A stretch of 46,457 nucleotides of DNA from a phage: NCBI GenBank assembly GCA_026328835.1, contig GCA_026328835.1_4850.1; one strand, given 5' to 3'. The notes beneath the pieces are model-generated. The model saw nothing but the letters and a program-made list of their open reading frames with translations, did not search any database and was not told the origin of the DNA. Shown piece by piece: positions 2,431 through 46,173 of this stretch (position 1 is its first letter; every line of letters begins with the position of its first letter). The position numbers and the translations under genes were made by a program.

Positions 2431-2732
2431 TATTTAATCTCTCCATTCAGTTCATTAACAATTAACGTTGCATAGCCAGCAATATCTTTCCAGCTGTCAT
2501 CATAAGTCGGGTCGCCATTCAGAATACGCCCAATCTTGTGCTGAATCATGTCGAGCGCCTCGCGCTGGCTTGGTGTCAGATTGTTCCACCCATCCACTTC
2601 GCGCATGACGGTTTTCAGTTCCTGCATGATTTCAGCGCCATCTTTGAATTTGCCGTATCGGCTACCGCGCGCGGTGATGAGTTGCTCTGTTGCGTCAGTA
2701 TGGCGCCTATCGCCCGTGATTTGTGAACTCAT
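2430..2732 (-). CDS. hypothetical protein
   Basis: 100-aa ORF; 1-nt overlap with downstream gene. Confidence 0.45.
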   Translation of the reverse strand: MSSQITGDRRHTDATEQLITARGSRYGKFKDGAEIMQELKTVMREVDGWNNLTPSQREALDMIQHKIGRILNGDPTYDDSWKDIAGYATLIVNELNGEIK

Positions 2733-3219
2733 TGTGATGTATTCTCCTGAATTCTTTTATTTTTGCTTCCGCTTCTCTTATGTCAGAAAAGTAACCAACT
2801 GTGAATCTTTTGCCATTTACTCCAACTCTTGCATGCCACTTGTTGTGCGATGAACTCCAGTTAACCCCCTTGATACCGCTAGTGTTGTTTTTGTTCATTG
2901 CTTTGTTGTGGCTATTCTCAAATTTGCTGGCCTCCCTTAAATTGCACGCCCTGTTGTCATTGCGAATTCCATTGATGTGATCAATCATTTCACTTGCTGA
3001 TGAGCCATGAATACATATCCATGCCAGTCTGTGAGCAAGAAAAGCCCTACCGCAAAGAATTATTTGCACATATCCATCTGGCTTTAAGTAGCCTGCAACG
3101 CTCCCTTTTTCTGCAATCCTATTCCTTGTCTTTAGCCATTTAAATTCCCCAGTTAGTGGATTGTAGTCAAGGTAACTCAATATAAACTCCCTACTCGGCT
3201 CCTCCCTCCTATGTCTCAT
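2707..3219 (-). CDS. HNH homing endonuclease with AP2-like DNA-binding domain
   Basis: HRLAW...DHINGIRNDNR..NLR HNH motif plus NTSGIKGVNW...W.A AP2-like segment. Confidence 0.8.
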   Translation of the reverse strand: MRHRREEPSREFILSYLDYNPLTGEFKWLKTRNRIAEKGSVAGYLKPDGYVQIILCGRAFLAHRLAWICIHGSSASEMIDHINGIRNDNRACNLREASKFENSHNKAMNKNNTSGIKGVNWSSSHNKWHARVGVNGKRFTVGYFSDIREAEAKIKEFRRIHHNEFTNHGR

Positions 3220-9908: not shown

Positions 9909-9937
9909 ATAAAAGCCCCGTGAAGGGGCTTTTTATT
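9909..9937. terminator. bidirectional rho-independent terminator
   Basis: aaagcccc-gtgaa-ggggcttt between convergent genes. Confidence 0.7.
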
Positions 9938-9938
9938 G

Positions 9939-16076: not shown

Positions 16077-16079
16077 AGA

Positions 16080-16108
16080 AAAAGCCCCGAAAGGGGCTTT
16101 GTTTTATT
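16080..16108. terminator. bidirectional rho-independent terminator
   Basis: aaagcccc-gaaa-ggggcttt between convergent genes. Confidence 0.7.
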
Positions 16109-20058: not shown

Positions 20059-20061
20059 AAA

Positions 20062-20085
20062 ATAAGCCCCTCACGGGGCTTTGTT
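20062..20085. terminator. rho-independent terminator
   Basis: aagcccc-tcac-ggggctt stem-loop. Confidence 0.6.
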
Positions 20086-20949
20086 CATTATCTCGTCCAT
20101 TAATTCAGGTGAATATTTAAGCCACTCCGTTGCGCCATCAAACCCTGTCAGTCCTGCACTTTCGTATTTCTTATGATAGTACCTTTCAATAGCAAGAGCA
20201 TCACAACCTATTGTCTTTATTTTTGATATGACGTGAAAATCAAATGGTGTGTTTTTCTTTAACTGACAAACTCTACGCCTAAGATTGTTAGTGATCCCAA
20301 CTTTAATTTCGTTTCCTGAGAACAAGAAGTAAACAAAGGCCTTTTCTTTCAGCTTGAAACCTCCCTTGGAGCAATGAGGGCAACCTTGCCCTTGGAGATG
20401 CTTATCTGGCGTCTTTGTAAACCACCCATGCTCTGGGCATTTTATTCTCATTTTTGTTGTCACATTAATGTATGACAAGCAATCATAATGGTACTTATTC
20501 CCATGAATTATAATGGCATCTTTCTTGAACTTATTGAACCCCTTAGTTACAGATGCTGTAATTTTCTCCCTTGCGCAAACAGGGCAACCACACCCATTAA
20601 GGTGGCTGTTGGCCTCCTGAGAAAACTCAAAGTTATGTACTTTGCATATTATTTTTACTTTCTTGTGACCACCTTTGTATTCAACTTTAGAATAATCATA
20701 AGAGTCACCATGCTTTGCAATCGCATCAGCCACAAATTCACGCGTTGTTTTCTTCTTATTTCCAGAGCAAGAAGGGCATCCAGCTCCATTCAAATGAGAG
20801 TTTGGAGTCTGCTCAAATAGCCCATGCTTACGGCATGTTATCTTTACCTTTATCGAACTTTTTATATAAGAAACAGCATCATAAAGATATTTATCACCAT
20901 GAATATCTCTGGCTTTTATAATAAATTCTTCAGCGGTTGACTTGCTCAT
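20071..20949 (-). CDS. putative nuclease: three tandem Cys/His zinc-ribbon repeats plus T5orf172 (GIY-YIG-like) C-terminal domain
   Basis: three ~65-aa repeats HG.KY.Y...C..HG.F...P..HL.G.GCP.C; C-terminal VYFLF..NEIKVGIT.NL.RR...EWL. Confidence 0.55.
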   Translation of the reverse strand: MSKSTAEEFIIKARDIHGDKYLYDAVSYIKSSIKVKITCRKHGLFEQTPNSHLNGAGCPSCSGNKKKTTREFVADAIAKHGDSYDYSKVEYKGGHKKVKIICKVHNFEFSQEANSHLNGCGCPVCAREKITASVTKGFNKFKKDAIIIHGNKYHYDCLSYINVTTKMRIKCPEHGWFTKTPDKHLQGQGCPHCSKGGFKLKEKAFVYFLFSGNEIKVGITNNLRRRVCQLKKNTPFDFHVISKIKTIGCDALAIERYYHKKYESAGLTGFDGATEWLKYSPELMDEIMNKAP

Positions 20950-21086
20950 GATTGAATCCTCGGTTAAAGGTGGTTTGAAGTGATGCAGCAGGCGATAACC
21001 AATCGCTTTTCATCTGGCCGGACTAGCTGCACTTATGATTGTACCATCAGCGTGCTAAAATACAACAACACAAGATGGAGACTATC

Positions 21087-30711: not shown

Positions 30712-32617
30712 AATCTTTTCTGTGTATTATGTCACGGCCTTTATCGTTAATACGATGTGTGATGCGTTTTGGCGCTTTAATCAACCCCGCATACATCATG
30801 AACTGCTTGGCGTTCTGGCATTTCAGGATTTTCCCAGCTATTGATTTATCATCAAGGTGAGGGAAGATGGCCTTTGCCTTGAACATGTTTTTCATGTGGG
30901 TTGCTCCGCCGTAAGGGTAGAAAACCTCGTTAGCCCAGCCTTCTTTGCCATCACAACGATTAATCCAGTAGCGATATAAAATTCCCTCTCCATCCTTCGT
31001 CAACTGGACTTTGAAGTCAATAACATCAGCCCATTCGTTGTCGGTATACGCACGCTCATTCAGTGCCGCATTTGGGTCTCGCAAAACATGATCGCAATGT
31101 CGGCAATAGCGCGCCGTAGGGTCGTTTTTAGTTCCGCAACCATCATCAAAAATACGGATGCCATGCTTATCGAAGCCGCAACGGATGTAGCTGAAAAATT
31201 CTTCGCAGCGACCATCTGGAGATAGTGCATCTTTGCCAATACAGCGGCGAGCATATGGGCTGTTCATTGTTCCACATTTTGGACACGGAACCTGTTCGCC
31301 ACTGCGTTTTGAACGTTGCGCTTCAGCCTCTTCCAGAATAGGGTCTTCATACAGCTGACCAAGCTCAAACATCGTGCCTGAGAAATCCAGAACCAGATGG
31401 TCTTCTTTATGATACCCGGCATCAATTTGCTCTTTCTTCAGCAGGCGCATTCCGCGACCAAGCAACTGAACGAGAAGGGTGAGTGACATTATTTTTCGTA
31501 ATATGACGCTTACATCCCATAATGGGATATTAACGCCAGTTGTAAGCGCGGCGATCTGGAATGTGTATTTTATTTTGCCAGTGTACGCATCCCTCAGGGC
31601 TTTGCGTCTTGCTTTTTGCCCCATATCTTCAGTAACAATCGCGTAGCTGCCTTCAGGAAGGTATTTAGCAGCCTCCAAGCAATGCTTCTTGCCTGCGCAG
31701 GTAATTAATACCCCATTTCTGTCTTTTGTAAGCTCCATCACTTTGAGCATGATTTTCTGTGTAAGAGTTCCTTGTTCAAGTATTTCCTCCTGCATCTGCT
31801 TGAGCTGCTCTGCGGTGAAGTCCTGCGTCCCGTCAACATCTGAGCCATGGAAGTTATGCAGGTCGTATTGCAAGTCATCAACATCATGAAGACCAAAGAT
31901 TGTTGGAACAACAAATCCACGATCTACCATGTACTTTGTGTCAATGTTTATTATTTCATTTTTCCAGTACGCGCCTTTCATTGATTCAGTACCACGGAAT
32001 GGACTTCCGGTGAATCCAATTGTTATCATCTCATGACCATATTTTTCCTTGCATCGCCTGTTAAGCTCAGTAAGTATTACGCCATATTGTGTTGTTGGAT
32101 TCTCACTAATAATGTCCTGCCATGGCACTTGGTGCCCTTCATCACAAAGGCAAAATCTAGGGGTAAAGTCACTCAACCCACCTTTCTTAACGTCACCGTT
32201 TGATTCATCTTTTTTATCAAAAAGTGCGTTAACTATTGTTCCTTCAGTGCCGCATATAATAGGGTATGCTGTACTTTTCCTACCAAGAGATGCGCTATAA
32301 AGAGAGTTTTTTACACCACACTCCCACATCATTTCAGCATTCTGCTCAGCTATCTCGCCCTGCCTTGAGATTACAAGACCCTCCCACCCCATATCCTGAA
32401 ATCTACTGCAAAGCATTGAAATCATCACGGTCTTTCCTGATGAAACAGACGCTGTAACATAGCTTGGCTCTGGTTTCTTTCCAAAATTACGAATAACCTC
32501 AGCGCACTTTGCGTAAACAAGCCATTGGTAATCATATGGCTCTATGGAACCTAATTTTATTGATTTCTTTAATTTATCTATATCAATTTCTGAAATCATC
32601 TTGTCTATTTTATGCAT
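30683..32617 (-). CDS. superfamily 2 DNA helicase with C-terminal zinc ribbons
   Basis: Walker A SVSSGKT; DEGH box (LCDEGHQV); QLLGRGMR arginine finger; CPKCG and CRHC pairs. Confidence 0.85.
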   Translation of the reverse strand: MHKIDKMISEIDIDKLKKSIKLGSIEPYDYQWLVYAKCAEVIRNFGKKPEPSYVTASVSSGKTVMISMLCSRFQDMGWEGLVISRQGEIAEQNAEMMWECGVKNSLYSASLGRKSTAYPIICGTEGTIVNALFDKKDESNGDVKKGGLSDFTPRFCLCDEGHQVPWQDIISENPTTQYGVILTELNRRCKEKYGHEMITIGFTGSPFRGTESMKGAYWKNEIINIDTKYMVDRGFVVPTIFGLHDVDDLQYDLHNFHGSDVDGTQDFTAEQLKQMQEEILEQGTLTQKIMLKVMELTKDRNGVLITCAGKKHCLEAAKYLPEGSYAIVTEDMGQKARRKALRDAYTGKIKYTFQIAALTTGVNIPLWDVSVILRKIMSLTLLVQLLGRGMRLLKKEQIDAGYHKEDHLVLDFSGTMFELGQLYEDPILEEAEAQRSKRSGEQVPCPKCGTMNSPYARRCIGKDALSPDGRCEEFFSYIRCGFDKHGIRIFDDGCGTKNDPTARYCRHCDHVLRDPNAALNERAYTDNEWADVIDFKVQLTKDGEGILYRYWINRCDGKEGWANEVFYPYGGATHMKNMFKAKAIFPHLDDKSIAGKILKCQNAKQFMMYAGLIKAPKRITHRINDKGRDIIHRKDFAGEQSEAA

Positions 32618-33222
32618 TATTTTACCCTACCAAATTCACCATGAAGACTTGATGATGCTTTTGCATACGCTTTATGTGCATCCTCAGGGGTATTAAAATA
32701 ACCAATAACTTTCTTTTTACCTCTAACCCAAATCTGAGCAACCCACCGTTTCTCCCTTTTGAACCAACTAACACCTTTGTATCCGCTAGTGTTATTTGAT
32801 GATAAGCCTTTATTCCATTTGTTTTGACTGCAATCAGCCAACCTGAGATTTTCTATCCTGTTATCGTTCTTAATTGTATTGATGTGATCAATGTCCATAG
32901 CTCCAGGGTCTTGCTGTTTGCATATGGCCCATACAATTCTATGTGCTTTATAATAAACACCATCAATCATCACAAGCCTGTAATTCATTTTGTCAACCTT
33001 ATTGTCAGCAGGTTTCCCCGGATACCGTGAATTCCATGTTTTGTGATATGGCGTTAATTCATCTCTCCTTTTCCAATACAGGCGTCCATTGACAACCTCT
33101 AACCTTGATGTCACGTAATCAACATCAATTTTTAGCACCTTTCTTTTTTTCTCTAAAACTTTTGAGTCGGCACCCTGAGCAACAGAACTCAGCCCTTGCT
33201 GTTCCATAGAATTCCCCCCCAC
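32617..33222 (-). CDS. HNH homing endonuclease with AP2-like domain
   Basis: HRIVW...DHINTIKNDNRIENLR plus NTSGYKGVSW...W.A. Confidence 0.8.
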   Translation of the reverse strand: MGGNSMEQQGLSSVAQGADSKVLEKKRKVLKIDVDYVTSRLEVVNGRLYWKRRDELTPYHKTWNSRYPGKPADNKVDKMNYRLVMIDGVYYKAHRIVWAICKQQDPGAMDIDHINTIKNDNRIENLRLADCSQNKWNKGLSSNNTSGYKGVSWFKREKRWVAQIWVRGKKKVIGYFNTPEDAHKAYAKASSSLHGEFGRVK

Positions 33223-39924: not shown

Positions 39925-40368
39925 ATGGCTAATCCAAACCCTGTCATGAAATTTTCCTCTGAGTACCAGCCTGCTGGCAGAGGATTAAGCTACAGAAACA
40001 GGCTTATTGAAGCATTAAAGCGATGTGGGCTTGGCGAAGAGGAGTTTCTTGACGCATTCATCAGGACGTCAATCAGGATGACCGAGGAAAACCCGACTCA
40101 GGGTGTGCAGATGCTGAAGGAGATATTCCTGCGCATCAGTCCCGTGCAGAAAAGTATGGCGCCTCCGGTTAATTTTAAATACCGCAAAGATGCCACGCCG
40201 GTAGAGCAGATAGAGGATGTCATTCAATCTGTTTCCAGCGGTGAACTCCCAATTGACGTGGCGTCTCAGGTTGTGTCTATGATTAAGGTTGGTCTTGACG
40301 TGAAAGAGTTAACCGAACTCGCAGCGCGCCTTGAGCGACTGGAGAAATTACTGGAGCAGCAACAATAA
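39925..40368 (+). CDS. putative terminase small subunit
   Basis: 147 aa directly upstream of terminase large subunit (interrupted by HNH gene). Confidence 0.5.
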   Translation: MANPNPVMKFSSEYQPAGRGLSYRNRLIEALKRCGLGEEEFLDAFIRTSIRMTEENPTQGVQMLKEIFLRISPVQKSMAPPVNFKYRKDATPVEQIEDVIQSVSSGELPIDVASQVVSMIKVGLDVKELTELAARLERLEKLLEQQQ

Positions 40369-40374
40369 CTCATT

Positions 40375-40380
40375 TATAAT
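40375..40380 (+). promoter_or_regulatory. -10 hexamer TATAAT preceding HNH leader
   Basis: TATAAT 7 nt upstream of structured element. Confidence 0.35.
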
Positions 40381-40387
40381 AATCAAT

Positions 40388-40433
40388 GCGGCAAAGGGTA
40401 GCTCCCTGCCCGGATTGGTCTCCGGGCTGCCGC
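40388..40433 (+). ncRNA. conserved structured 5' leader element (copy A)
   Basis: outer stem gcggca/tgccgc enclosing hairpins aggg-tagct-ccct and gcccgga-ttggtc-tccgggc; near-identical copy at 45501-45546. Confidence 0.5.
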
Positions 40434-40471
40434 ATCCAACCAATAGACCGCCTGTAACCGAGGATTCAATC

Positions 40472-40990
40472 ATGTCATCATTAAAAGAGTTGCCACTCAC
40501 TCAAGAAAGACTTAAACATCTCCTGCATTACAATCCAGACACCGGTGTTTTCACGTGGTTAAGTAAGCCAAGCAGAAGAATAAATTCTGGAAGCATTGCT
40601 GGCAGGATAAAACCTAAGAAGGGGTATGTGGAAATAGGAATAAGTGGAAGGATCTATCTTGCTCATAGGCTGGCATGGCTTTACATCTATGGAACTTGGC
40701 CTAAAGAACAAGTTGACCACATTAATGGCATTCGTAACGATAACAGGATTAAGAATTTAAGGCTGGCCACAACATCACAGAATCAGTGGAACAAGAAGAT
40801 GCAAAAAAACAACACATCTGGAATTAAGGGGGTTAGCTGGGATAATCAACGGGGAAAATGGATAGCCCAATGCTGGTTATTTGGCAAGTATCACAAAATA
40901 GGTAGGTTTTCATCAATTGATGATGCTGAACGTGCAATAAGACAGTTCAGGGAGAAACATCAGGGGGAATTTTGCAATCATGGCGCGTAA
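40472..40990 (+). CDS. HNH homing endonuclease with AP2-like domain
   Basis: start MSSLKEL at 40472; HRLAW...DHINGIRNDNRIKNLR; NTSGIKGVSW. Confidence 0.8.
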   Translation: MSSLKELPLTQERLKHLLHYNPDTGVFTWLSKPSRRINSGSIAGRIKPKKGYVEIGISGRIYLAHRLAWLYIYGTWPKEQVDHINGIRNDNRIKNLRLATTSQNQWNKKMQKNNTSGIKGVSWDNQRGKWIAQCWLFGKYHKIGRFSSIDDAERAIRQFREKHQGEFCNHGA

Positions 40991-42404
40991 AAGACTCTCA
41001 AGCGTTGCGATAGAAAAACTTGAGCAAGCAGTAGGCAATTCAACTGCAAAGCCAGAGTCCGCTGTTTTCGGCCTTGTCGATAAGATATTGTCTGACGGTA
41101 CACCAAATGTGGTTAAGTGCCTTAAAATGACAGCCACTGGCGTGTCAGAAACAGACGAGAAGCCAACAATATTAATCCCTGAGCGAATGGAGCTGCTGCT
41201 TTATCCTCGCCGTTTCAAAGTGTTCTATGGTGGCAGGGGAAGCGGAAAGACGGCTAACGTTGTTTCTTACCTTATAGAAAAGGCAAGATTTCGCAACAGC
41301 CGCGTCGGATGCTTCCGTGAGATACAGAACTCAATCAAAGAATCAAGCTATGCCGAGCTGGTCGATGAGATAAACAGGAAGGGGCGCACTCAGGAATATC
41401 GTTGCGTGGATGGCGAGATAACACACCACACAACGAGATCAAAGTTTGTTTTTCGTGGCCTTTGGCGAAACATAACCGCAATCAAGGGCATGGCTGGACT
41501 TACAGATGTGTTCTGCGAAGAATCCGAAAACATCAGTCAGGTGTCATGGGATACGTTAATCCCAACGGTGCGCGCCTCTGGTTCTGAAATTATTATTGTT
41601 TTTAACCCAAATAAAGAGACGGACCCGACGTGGACTAACTTTGTTGAGCCTTACATCGGCAAAATGGTTGACGGCATATATCAGGATGATGACATCGTTG
41701 TTGTTAATGTTAACTACGTCCACAACCCGTGGTTCACGGAAGAACTTAAACAGCACATGAACCAGATGAAGGCTGTGGATTATGATCGCTACCTTTGGGT
41801 GTATGAAGGTAAATTCAACAAACGCAGTGACGAACAGGTATTCGGCGGCAAATGGCGCATTGATAACTTTGAGGTCAAGCCTGAATGGCACGGCCCATAC
41901 TTCGGGATGGACTTCGGGTTCAGTACGGACCCCACTGCAATGGTTGAGGTTTACATCGAAGAACTGCCTGGTGGACGGCGCAACATTTATATTAATCGCG
42001 AGTATGGCAAGGTTGGACTTGAGATTACCGATACGCCAGCCGCGATGGAGCAATCATTCCCGATGGCTAAGCGCGCACGATGGTATGCCGACTGCGCTCG
42101 ACCTGAAACTATCAGCCACATCAAGCGTTCTGGATTTGACATTCACCCATGCACGAAATGGCCTGGGAGCGTTGAGGATGGCGTAACATGGTTGCGCGGC
42201 TGCGACAGTATCATCATTCATGACAGGTGCAAGGAAATGCAAAATGAGGCTGCAATGTACAGCTACAAGGTTGATAAGCTGACTGGCAACGTGCTGACTG
42301 ATATTGTCGATGCATTCAACCACTTCTGGGATGCTGTTCGCTATGCGCTTAATGACCATATCGTCCAGCGCGGTAGTGGAATGCTAATCCGGCGCAGGCG
42401 TTAA
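40980..42404 (+). CDS. terminase large subunit
   Basis: 474 aa; Walker A YGGRGSGKT; C-terminal nuclease-like region. Confidence 0.9.
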   Translation: MARKRLSSVAIEKLEQAVGNSTAKPESAVFGLVDKILSDGTPNVVKCLKMTATGVSETDEKPTILIPERMELLLYPRRFKVFYGGRGSGKTANVVSYLIEKARFRNSRVGCFREIQNSIKESSYAELVDEINRKGRTQEYRCVDGEITHHTTRSKFVFRGLWRNITAIKGMAGLTDVFCEESENISQVSWDTLIPTVRASGSEIIIVFNPNKETDPTWTNFVEPYIGKMVDGIYQDDDIVVVNVNYVHNPWFTEELKQHMNQMKAVDYDRYLWVYEGKFNKRSDEQVFGGKWRIDNFEVKPEWHGPYFGMDFGFSTDPTAMVEVYIEELPGGRRNIYINREYGKVGLEITDTPAAMEQSFPMAKRARWYADCARPETISHIKRSGFDIHPCTKWPGSVEDGVTWLRGCDSIIIHDRCKEMQNEAAMYSYKVDKLTGNVLTDIVDAFNHFWDAVRYALNDHIVQRGSGMLIRRRR

Positions 42405-43141: not shown

Positions 43142-45485
<2,344 letters not shown>

Positions 45486-45488
<3 letters not shown>

Positions 45489-45494
45489 TATAAT
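45486..45494 (+). promoter_or_regulatory. extended -10 promoter element TGATATAAT preceding HNH leader
   Basis: 7 nt upstream of structured element copy B. Confidence 0.45.
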
Positions 45495-45500
45495 TTACTT

Positions 45501-45546
45501 GCAGCAAAGGGTAGCTCCCTGCCCGGATTGGTCTCCGGGCTGCTGC
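45501..45546 (+). ncRNA. conserved structured 5' leader element (copy B)
   Basis: identical inner hairpins to copy A; outer stem gcagca/tgctgc carries compensatory change. Confidence 0.5.
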
Positions 45547-45585
45547 ATCCAATCAATAGACCATCCTTATGACCGAGGACTCAAA

Positions 45586-46137
45586 ATGAAATCAATAAAC
45601 CGCAACAAAATGCCTGCAATGGCTCGCCTTTCACATCTATTCATTATTTCCAATGATGGAACAATCAAGCGCAGAATTGCTGCTGGCAATAGAGCGGCAG
45701 GCAGCAGCGCAGAAAGGAGTTTGTGTGGAAGTGACTATACATGCATAACTGTTGATGGCGTAAGATACCTAACCCATAGGGTTATTTGGTTCTTCTTTAC
45801 TGGTGAAGAGCCTGATTATCTTGATCACATAAATAGAAACAAAAAGGACAACAGACTATGCAATTTGAGGCCAGTATCCGCCACAGGAAACAGAAGTAAC
45901 ACTGATTTGATGAACAACAACACAACTGGATATATTGGTGTTTATTGGTATTACTACAAAGGAACTCCTAGATGGAGAGCTGCTTGCAACGATAAACATC
46001 TTGGGTATTACAGTTCGCTTGTCTCGGCAGTAAAGGCATATAATCGTTATGTGACAAGTATTTATGGTGATGAGGCATTAGCAAAGGTTGAGCATAACAA
46101 GAGGATGATCAAAGAATCTTTTGGTATTGAACTGTAG
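45586..46137 (+). CDS. HNH homing endonuclease with AP2-like domain
   Basis: start MKSINRNK at 45586; HRVIW...DHINRNKKDNRLCNLR; NTTGYIGVYW. Confidence 0.75.
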   Translation: MKSINRNKMPAMARLSHLFIISNDGTIKRRIAAGNRAAGSSAERSLCGSDYTCITVDGVRYLTHRVIWFFFTGEEPDYLDHINRNKKDNRLCNLRPVSATGNRSNTDLMNNNTTGYIGVYWYYYKGTPRWRAACNDKHLGYYSSLVSAVKAYNRYVTSIYGDEALAKVEHNKRMIKESFGIEL

Positions 46138-46142
46138 CAAAC

Positions 46143-46173
46143 AAAAAGCCCTCTAAGTGAGGGCTTTGCTTTA
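46143..46173. terminator. bidirectional rho-independent terminator
   Basis: aaagccctc-taagt-gagggcttt between convergent genes. Confidence 0.7.

Follow-up and report, generated by a model that had tools for sequence, protein, structure and literature searches.

A conserved three-way-junction RNA carried in mobile homing-endonuclease cassettes of phages

The stretch of phage DNA analyzed here (46,457 nucleotides (nt); GenBank assembly GCA_026328835.1, contig GCA_026328835.1_4850.1), referred to below as the window, carries two nearly identical segments, leaders A and B, each located just upstream of an HNH endonuclease gene. Our analysis firmly establishes that these segments encode a sense-strand RNA structure which is under selection and is carried in a mobile gene cassette. 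The window is that of a Skatevirus-like siphophage, whose nearest kin are Escherichia phage vB_EcoS_swi2 and Salmonella phages LPST10, KFS-SE2, ST46, and Segz_1.

A first-pass annotation, made from the sequence alone, had noted that about 60 nt upstream of the two HNH genes are nearly identical although the genes diverge, and our measurements bear this out. A direct repeat of 63 nt (40387–40449 and 45500–45562) is 95% identical between the copies and is the sole such long pair in the window, whereas the two HNH_3 proteins, HNH-A and HNH-B, share only 31% identity. In the alignment, a looser similarity extends beyond the repeat to the ATG start codons. The 46-nt cores of both copies adopt one shared minimum free energy (MFE) structure, where an outer stem surrounds a hairpin of 4 base pairs (bp) and a hairpin of 7 bp. 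Folding energies are −27.9 kcal/mol for A and −26.4 kcal/mol for B (z = −3.3 and −3.6 compared to dinucleotide shuffles), so the folding check suggested in the annotation returns a stable common fold. The topology of an outer stem around two hairpins had been described correctly, but the stem counts 7 bp (8 bp in copy A) instead of 6, and the element, placed at 40388–40433, is in fact longer: the conserved unit reaches a pseudoknot partner at 40445–40450 (45558–45563 in B). Neither the pseudoknot, nor a third leader in the window, nor the kinship with the Rfam motif int-alpA had been recognized. The parts of both leaders and the genes that they precede are as follows.

40375–40380, plus strand: −10-like hexamer TATAAT of leader A, 6 nt upstream of the outer stem and just past the terS stop codon (40366–40368)
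40387–40434, plus strand: three-way junction of leader A, from fold and covariation
40387–40393 pairing with 40428–40434, plus strand: outer stem
40395–40407, plus strand: hairpin 1, AGGG-UAGCU-CCCU
40408–40427, plus strand: hairpin 2, 7 bp, loop UUGGUC at 40415–40420
40445–40450, plus strand: pseudoknot partner AGACCG, complementary to the hairpin-2 loop UGGUCU at 40416–40421 (duplex −7.2 kcal/mol)
40460–40464, plus strand: Shine-Dalgarno sequence (SD) GAGGA, followed by the ATG at 40472–40474; a weak CCU/AGG hairpin covers part of the SD
40472–40990, plus strand: HNH-A endonuclease gene (HNH_3 + AP2), whose stop overlaps the terL start (40980)
45489–45494, plus strand: TATAAT of leader B with a preceding TG (extended −10, TGaTATAAT), the TG being part of the stop codon of a Mu-F-like head gene
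45500–45547, plus strand: three-way junction of leader B, anatomy as in leader A, with A-U at 45503–45544
45558–45563, plus strand: pseudoknot partner AGACCA (−8.0 kcal/mol)
45575–45579, plus strand: SD GAGGA of leader B, followed by the HNH-B gene (HNH_3) at 45586–46137

The paired change in the outer stem that had been pointed out between the copies is present: G40390-C40431 of A is replaced with A45503-U45544 in B, and pairing is kept. Leaders of the form of A and B, which we call type 1, are carried by ~35 phage records, with A and B each maintained at its respective site in different phage genera. Conservation in other genomes, named beforehand as a test, is thus observed. Comparison of nine distinct type-1 versions showed that variation in pairs is limited to two pairs of the outer stem and is always compensatory or via G-U: the third pair of the 6-bp stem is seen as G-C, G-U, or A-U, and the second as C-G or U-A. 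Only 6 of the 48 core columns vary, four of them being these two covarying pairs, compared to 14 of the 39 columns in the tail down to the ATG; the inner hairpins are identical in all nine versions. Since the G-U intermediates can form a wobble pair on the coding strand alone, they indicate an RNA. The type-1 covariance model (R2) scores 103.5 bits for leader B and 119.3 bits for leader A, the latter as expected because the model was built from the leader A sequence. Exact-word scans of IMG/VR with the type-1 core returned only near-identical copies of the Skatevirus group and chance matches.

Loop-to-tail pseudoknot and the wider leader family

In every sequence type, despite differing sequences, hairpin 2 carries a loop complementary to a segment located 7–12 nt 3′ of the outer stem. 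Examples of loop and partner are UGGUCU:AGACCA, UCAUCA:UGAUGA, UGGUU:AACCA, CGUAGA:UCUACG, AGUCAG:CUGACU, CGCUCA:UGAGCG, and CUAACU:AGUUAG. This complement spans 5–7 nt in 11 of 11 representatives. In a cross-type matrix, the tail of its own type matches each loop at least as well as the tails of other types, with one exception (the type-3 loop against the tail of leader A). Shuffling gave probabilities of 0.003–0.23 for the individual types, and their Fisher combination over seven types is ~1e-5. At least eight additional loop-partner combinations are found in class I, the class of leaders A and B defined below. The SD lies 9–15 nt downstream of the partner in the Skatevirus group, while in several low-GC class I copies, which are devoid of a −10, the partner abuts or overlaps the SD.

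Two possible partners are available to the hairpin-2 loop CUCAUCA of type-2 leaders (L067 656–713 and others). One is UGAUG at the usual site, 10 nt past the stem; the other, UGAUGAG, overlaps the SD and would form 7 bp (−9.9 kcal/mol). These two partners could represent an on/off alternative.

The third leader of the window, C, has a different sequence and lies on the minus strand (21031–20971) before a T5orf172-type endonuclease gene. The type-2 covariance model (R1) matched it at 21035–20946 (minus strand; 49.7 bits, E 7e-9). Its single-sequence MFE structure does not show the family fold, and the junction given here comes from the covariance-model alignment.

21038–21046, minus strand: extended −10 TGgTACAAT, 6 nt upstream of the outer stem
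20984–21031, minus strand: three-way junction of leader C, class II (int-alpA-like), by R1 match
21031–21026, minus strand: outer stem UGCAGC, then UA, hairpin 1 GUCCGGCCAGAU, and GAAAA
21006–20992, minus strand: hairpin 2 GCGAU-UGGUU-AUCGC, then CU and outer stem GCUGCA (20989–20984)
20971–20975, minus strand: pseudoknot partner AACCA, complementary to loop UGGUU (−5.1 kcal/mol)
20961–20957, minus strand: SD GAGGA
20949–20071, minus strand: gene, antisense to the tail genes on either side, of a 292-amino-acid (aa) endonuclease that combines T5orf172/MUG113 and treble-clef zinc-finger domains

At least 14 phage sequence types share this architecture, and stems, loop, and loop partner all co-vary among them. 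In Sf11, IME207, and Bas81, a type-2 leader between terS and terL has the outer-stem sequence of copy A with a different interior. Type 2 contributes three further covarying pairs, and its variants carry compensatory changes in each of the three helices. Additional types were detected by the same model searches in Skate, LPST10, VSt472, Seszw_1, and viral contigs from metagenomes. Mosaic leaders also exist, which suggests recombination within the element.

Leader C is of a class that matches int-alpA (Rfam RF02996), a candidate structured RNA of unknown function (Weinberg et al., 2017; PMC5737381). The main text of that paper does not discuss the motif. In the literature that we searched, we found no functional study of int-alpA and no paper on a homing-endonuclease-associated junction-pseudoknot motif. 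With a gathering score of 35.8 bits, the int-alpA model detects the Sf11 leader (42.6 bits), while copy C (26.6 bits, E 0.0012) and the other class II leaders score below it. Copies A and B do not match even at E<=10, the whole window has no int-alpA match at the gathering threshold, and no Rfam family covers class I leaders.

Like leaders A, B, and C, int-alpA is a three-stem junction of similar size, where an outer stem encloses two hairpins and the hairpin-2 loop pairs with the 3′ tail (CCUU with AAGG in the Rfam consensus). Both int-alpA and the phage leaders lie a few tens of nt before an open reading frame (ORF) in mobile elements. Class II phage leaders also share the int-alpA junction UAG...CGAAAAG...CCUG, of which copy C has UA, GAAAA, and CU, whereas the junction strands of A and B are a single A, none, and none, and their hairpin 1 is different and invariant. 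The genetic contexts differ as well: int-alpA is found in an integrase-alpA setting in chromosomal islands, whereas no integrase or alpA lies near the window leaders, which belong to lytic-phage homing-endonuclease cassettes (terS|HNH|terL, head gene|HNH, and tape measure|endonuclease).

In E. coli chromosomes, int-alpA copies come immediately behind an integrase gene, with an unannotated ORF ~22 nt further on, and their pseudoknot covaries (ACCUU:AAGGU in one, GCCUU:AAGGC in the other). These copies (L172 2493–2581 and L173 2497–2582) stand next to yicC, after a tyrosine integrase gene. The ORF behind them (307–317 aa) has no Pfam or PHROG match and is followed by a gene for an AlpA-like helix-turn-helix (HTH) protein and by Icd-like genes. 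In the L172 copy, as in the Rfam consensus, the outer stem is succeeded by a U-rich run that is absent from the phage copies.

Class I is an uncatalogued sister form of the int-alpA motif with the same architecture. Its hallmark is an invariant hairpin 1, AAGGGUNGCUCCCUG (window 40394–40408 and 45507–45521), which is also unchanged in L181, L214, L219, and L244 on contigs of 36–58% GC, while the rest freely covaries. The absence of covariation from this stem suggests that it has a sequence-specific partner or pairs alternatively. A scan of IMG/VR for the hairpin-1 15-mer gave 105 distinct segments, 22% of which pass the structure tests (a hairpin that begins with the final G, an enclosing stem, and complementarity of loop and tail over 5 nt or more), compared to 0.19% of flank-shuffled controls. 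In an alignment of 18 class I sequences, which leans toward structure because it was fitted to the model, double changes occur in 12 of 19 pairs and the paired fraction of cells is 91.9%, values that 0 of 500 shuffles attain; slid controls lie at 30–43%.

A 22-nt BLAST match in Kuttervirus was set aside as chance or a remnant, as it shares only the hairpin-1 15-mer and has no outer stem, hairpin 2, or pseudoknot. This 15-mer, AAGGGTAGCTCCCTG, lies in an unannotated part of Kuttervirus GG32 (L007 1501–1522), upstream of tRNA genes, and recurs in ~10 other Kuttervirus contigs. One class I-bearing metagenomic viral contig (L206 8888–8949) also carries a DUF2815 RNA (RF03084, 69.9 bits) and a tRNA.

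The insertion cassette and its genes

The −10 hexamer, leader, SD, and ORF form one insertion cassette of a free-standing homing-endonuclease gene. Empty sites exist among relatives for all three leader positions of the window. Seszw_1 has terS directly overlapping terL and lacks −10 hexamer, leader, and HNH gene alike. In SB28, the terminator which in the window comes after HNH-B adjoins the head gene, and hexamer, leader, and ORF are absent. The site of leader C and its endonuclease is empty in Sa179lw and many other relatives. The same leader is also found before unrelated nucleases: in Klebsiella phage VLCpiS13e, a type-1 leader on the opposite strand, with tail genes to either side, stands before the gene of a 368-aa T5orf172/MUG113 endonuclease and not an HNH gene. 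A mobile promoter-leader cassette had been among the suggestions of the first-pass annotation, and the joint loss of hexamer, leader, and ORF at empty sites, together with this exchange of nucleases, agrees with it. In ST46, Segz_1, KpV2811, pIS4-A, and others, a solo type-2 leader stands directly before terL, without a free-standing nuclease gene.

The terL of ST46 (L069 2905–5424) encodes 840 aa, its Walker A loop being interrupted by an intein that bears a LAGLIDADG-type motif (GGRG|CLAIG...VTHN|SGKT); intein-containing terL genes are likewise present in Segz_1, KpV2811, and pIS4-A. An insertion hotspot lies where the tape-measure gene adjoins the next tail gene (window 20059–21038); it is empty in Sa179lw, seszw, and Akira, holds an "amidase" in Segz_1 and KE12, and holds endonucleases in BS5 and VLCpiS13a/e/f. 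In the window, the HNH-A stop and the terL start overlap at 40980–40990 (ATGGCGCGTAA). This overlap replaces the terS/terL overlap of the Seszw_1 empty site, so translation of terL may be coupled to the inserted gene.

The ORFs downstream of leaders are mostly of nuclease type (HNH_3-AP2, T5orf172/MUG113, Endonuclease_7, LEM-3-like GIY-YIG, and HTH-HNH), and a seg-like GIY-YIG was also found behind a leader by a weak match. Loci fetched via HNH homology are biased toward nucleases; where the DNA pattern was the only search criterion, nuclease genes account for about two thirds. All copies that we examined point in the direction of an ORF on the same strand, which starts 20–45 nt past the junction in all but one. 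A structure-passing copy (L193) has no ORF within 45 nt, the nearest gene being a scaffold gene ~130 nt downstream. At least five unrelated nuclease families stand behind leaders, which argues against autoregulation by the endonuclease. The proposal that the element is an autoregulatory site for the HNH protein is accordingly unlikely, since the same leader or architecture precedes HNH_3-AP2, T5orf172, Endonuclease VII, GIY-YIG, and terL.

As had been reported for a TATAAT about 7 nt before each copy, the hexamers at 40375–40380 and 45489–45494 lie 6–7 nt ahead of the outer stem. In every Skatevirus-group type, a −10-like hexamer ends 5–7 nt before the stem. Judged from its position, the −10 predicts that transcription would start at the base of the fold and not inside it. 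The proposed placement of the element at the mRNA 5′ end can be retained in part: a −10-like hexamer at fixed distance speaks for it in the Skatevirus-like group only, but no −35 accompanies the hexamer, and other family members lie directly after an upstream stop codon without a −10.

Possible roles of the leader

The reading that we favour, to which we give an even chance of being correct, is that each copy is a structured, cis-acting, portable 5′ leader of its homing-endonuclease cassette which would set mRNA stability and ribosome access. It agrees with the dependence of phage homing-endonuclease genes on RNA structure at the ribosome-binding site (RBS) (PMC2988022) and with the finding that a leader can serve terL. 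The fold would act in cis on its own mRNA. In a transcript starting at the cassette −10, the compact knot would leave almost no free 5′ end, which may hinder 5′-end-dependent decay by RppH and RNase E. It may also shield the RBS from upstream sequence in all contexts and thereby fix or limit ribosome access. The outcome would be a selfish gene expressed at a tolerable, context-independent level wherever it is inserted.

Several observations weigh against this portable-leader reading. A sigma-70 scan finds no −35/−10 promoter at any of the three window leaders. Class I copies resembling type 7 have no −10 at all and lie right after a stop codon, so a 5′-terminal location cannot be a universal requirement. 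The SD is weakly paired in window copies A and B, where a hairpin of 3–5 bp touches it, and direct occlusion is therefore not evident there; in other class I members it is the pseudoknot partner that overlaps the SD. Some leaders precede genes that are not nucleases (KilA-N, Prim-Pol after a 12-codon ORF, and an unknown ORF), and the intein-containing terL and the E. coli island ORF are further exceptions among the genes behind leaders. To protect a 5′ end, a simple hairpin would suffice, and the class II junction and class I hairpin 1 hint at a specific partner or chemistry beyond this reading. Finally, homology of classes I and II is argued from architecture, position, and mosaics, the Rfam score being not significant.

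One rival is a regulated switch: a ligand would bind the leader as a riboswitch-like aptamer, or a host or phage protein would bind it as an operator, and this binding, at the junction or at hairpin 1, would strengthen or open the pseudoknot and so toggle translation downstream. Conservation of the class II junction nucleotides UAG, CGAAAAG, and CCUG amid freely covarying stems, the sequence invariance of class I hairpin 1 though it is a stem, the SD-overlapping partner of the type-2 loop (CUCAUCA:UGAUGAG), and the overlap of partner and SD in several class I copies are all consistent with it. We nevertheless regard a switch as unlikely: classes I and II conserve entirely different nucleotides at the same position, which is hard to fit to one ligand pocket, no common metabolic theme unites the downstream genes, terL, which is essential, is served by the leader with no obvious need for switching, and Rfam searches match no known aptamer family. 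Another rival is an RNA-processing device, be it a new self-cleaving ribozyme or a fold that directs or blocks a host RNase, which would release the selfish mRNA from the host operon transcript or guard it against decay arriving from upstream. The nucleotide conservation looks ribozyme-like, and the element sits at junctions between host genes and inserted genes. The topology, a three-way junction whose third-helix loop forms a pseudoknot with the 3′ tail, is also that of flaviviral class 1a exoribonuclease-resistant RNAs (xrRNAs; PMC8571300). Processing is nonetheless rather improbable in our view, as no Rfam ribozyme or xrRNA model matches, the junction strands, on reading the sequences, do not fit the hammerhead core, and no PK1-type 5′-end pairing was noticed. 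In its bolder form, to which we attach a similarly low probability, the fold would be an active device, namely a new class of small self-cleaving ribozyme or the first phage or bacterial "knot" RNA resistant to an exoribonuclease or to RNase E. Selfish genes (phage homing endonucleases and integrase-adjacent island genes) would use it to separate their mRNA from the host operon transcript or to shield it, and class I hairpin 1 and the class II junction would be two solutions to one task. If this were true, interest in the family would be much higher.

A trans-acting small RNA (sRNA) gene that merely lies upstream of ORFs would agree with the Rfam type label of int-alpA ("Gene; sRNA") and with the U-rich run right after the outer stem of E. 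coli int-alpA, which resembles a terminator. It is very doubtful for the phage leaders: the window copies have no U-tract or terminator between fold and SD, copies keep their orientation and, with one exception, their spacing relative to the ORF, and pseudoknot partner and SD travel with the fold. A role at the DNA level (a homing-site mimic autorepressing the promoter, a cruciform, or a recombination site) has a precedent in I-TevI, which represses its own promoter via a homing-site mimic (PMC2988022). The minus strand of copies A and B folds well too, and mosaic leaders suggest recombination inside the element. Against this, one leader serves unrelated nuclease families and terL, the sense-strand G-U pairs would be A-C mismatches on the other strand, and a loop-to-tail pseudoknot has no counterpart in duplex DNA, which makes such a role highly improbable. 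Two copies that are 95% identical and 5.1 kb apart in one genome, and inner hairpins of type 1 that do not vary among ~35 phage records, might mean that one HNH upstream region was recently duplicated or that the two underwent gene conversion, without selection for any structure. This is scarcely credible given that the architecture recurs with unrelated sequences and with compensatory changes in stems, loop, and loop partner, that changes in the type-1 core fall on paired positions, and that A and B are each kept at their own site in different phage genera. A tRNA-like element or RNase P substrate, suggested by the 7-bp stem and UCCA, was rejected: NCCA is found in type 1 only, other types having UUCA, UCCU, UCCC, or UCAC, and ARAGORN finds no tRNA or tmRNA in the window. 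Endonuclease autoregulation, a DNA-level role, a tRNA-like element, and simple recent duplication are thus effectively excluded. The hammerhead ribozyme (CUGANGA, GAAA, UH) was rejected as well, as class II has the strands UA, GAAAA, and CU and class I has A, none, and none; the CUGAUGA of type-2 tails lies outside the junction, the CUGAUGA...GAAA strands are misplaced, and there is no Rfam match.

The portable-leader reading can be compared with systems already described. In T-even phages, the homing-endonuclease genes I-TevI, I-TevII, I-TevIII, segB, and mobE are controlled by RNA structures at the RBS (PMC2988022). Like the leaders, these are cis-acting and lie immediately upstream of the homing-endonuclease ORF, near its own promoter or in a host operon. 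A comparable case is seg43(25) of Aeromonas phage 25, which has a non-sequestering hairpin upstream of the gene (PMC2988022); there as in the window copies, a very stable structure stands just upstream of the RBS, and in the window copies, too, it apparently does not sequester the RBS. The T-even structures are, however, simple gene-specific hairpins, whereas the leaders show one junction and pseudoknot architecture across many unrelated nuclease genes and phages, and the T-even logic of a late promoter inside the hairpin, by which late transcripts evade repression, is not visible in them. Promoter-early stem-loops (PeSLs) of T4-type phages (PMC2839356, PMC4122927) are also short intergenic cassettes which combine a promoter element, a stem-loop, and an SD, flank accessory ORFs, and recur in a genome, and they are implicated in modular shuffling; mosaic leaders occur in the present family too. 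PeSLs have full sigma-70 −35/−10 promoters, whereas the window leaders have a −10 or extended −10 only. The PeSL stem-loop is a terminator around or before the promoter, whereas the leader fold is a transcribed junction-pseudoknot downstream of the −10; a terminator scan called none at the leaders, where no U-run follows the outer stem.

Flaviviral class 1a xrRNAs share with the leaders a P1-P2-P3 junction and a pseudoknot of the P3 loop 3′ of P1, which measures 2–7 bp in xrRNAs (PMC8571300) and 5–7 bp in the phage motif. Of the features that mark an xrRNA (PK1, the J2/3 cytosine, and a covariance-model match), the Rfam match is absent and the PK1 pairing was not noticed on reading. The likeness is topological only, and the hosts are without a known Xrn1- or RNase J-type enzyme. 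No 5′-to-3′ exoribonuclease is known from enterobacteria, which also speaks against the processing reading.

Free-standing homing endonucleases need to be expressed wherever they are inserted without crippling neighbouring essential genes, and prior accounts of their control went gene by gene, with simple hairpins in T-even phages. What is new here is one RNA architecture common to at least five unrelated nuclease families in many phages. It has been exchanged from gene to gene, and some phages retain it by itself, driving the large terminase. For int-alpA, so far an orphan motif of Rfam, this provides a concrete genetic association and a testable cis-acting role, together with a sister class that Rfam does not detect. 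As a compact natural "expression insulator", the leader could serve phage engineering.

Surroundings of the leaders in the window

Genes around leaders A and B are ordered terS, leader A, HNH-A, terL, portal, Mu-F-like head gene, leader B, and HNH-B.

39925–40368, plus strand: terS, stop codon at 40366–40368
40980–42404, plus strand: terL
43145–44557: portal gene
44502–45488, plus strand: Mu-F-like head gene, directly before leader B
46145–46167: bidirectional terminator 3′ of HNH-B

Two further HNH_3-AP2 paralogs lie on the minus strand (2707–3219 and 32617–33222) and are 50% and 45% identical to HNH-A. Both are without a leader; their starts overlap or abut upstream genes, to which they are fused into operons. 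The window thus holds five endonuclease genes, three of them with leaders. Three terminator-like repeats of the form AAAAGCCCC-loop-GGGGCTTTT are located at 1704–1731, 9911–9938, and 16079–16106, and similar bidirectional terminators flank the endonuclease cassettes at 20064–20081 and 46145–46167.

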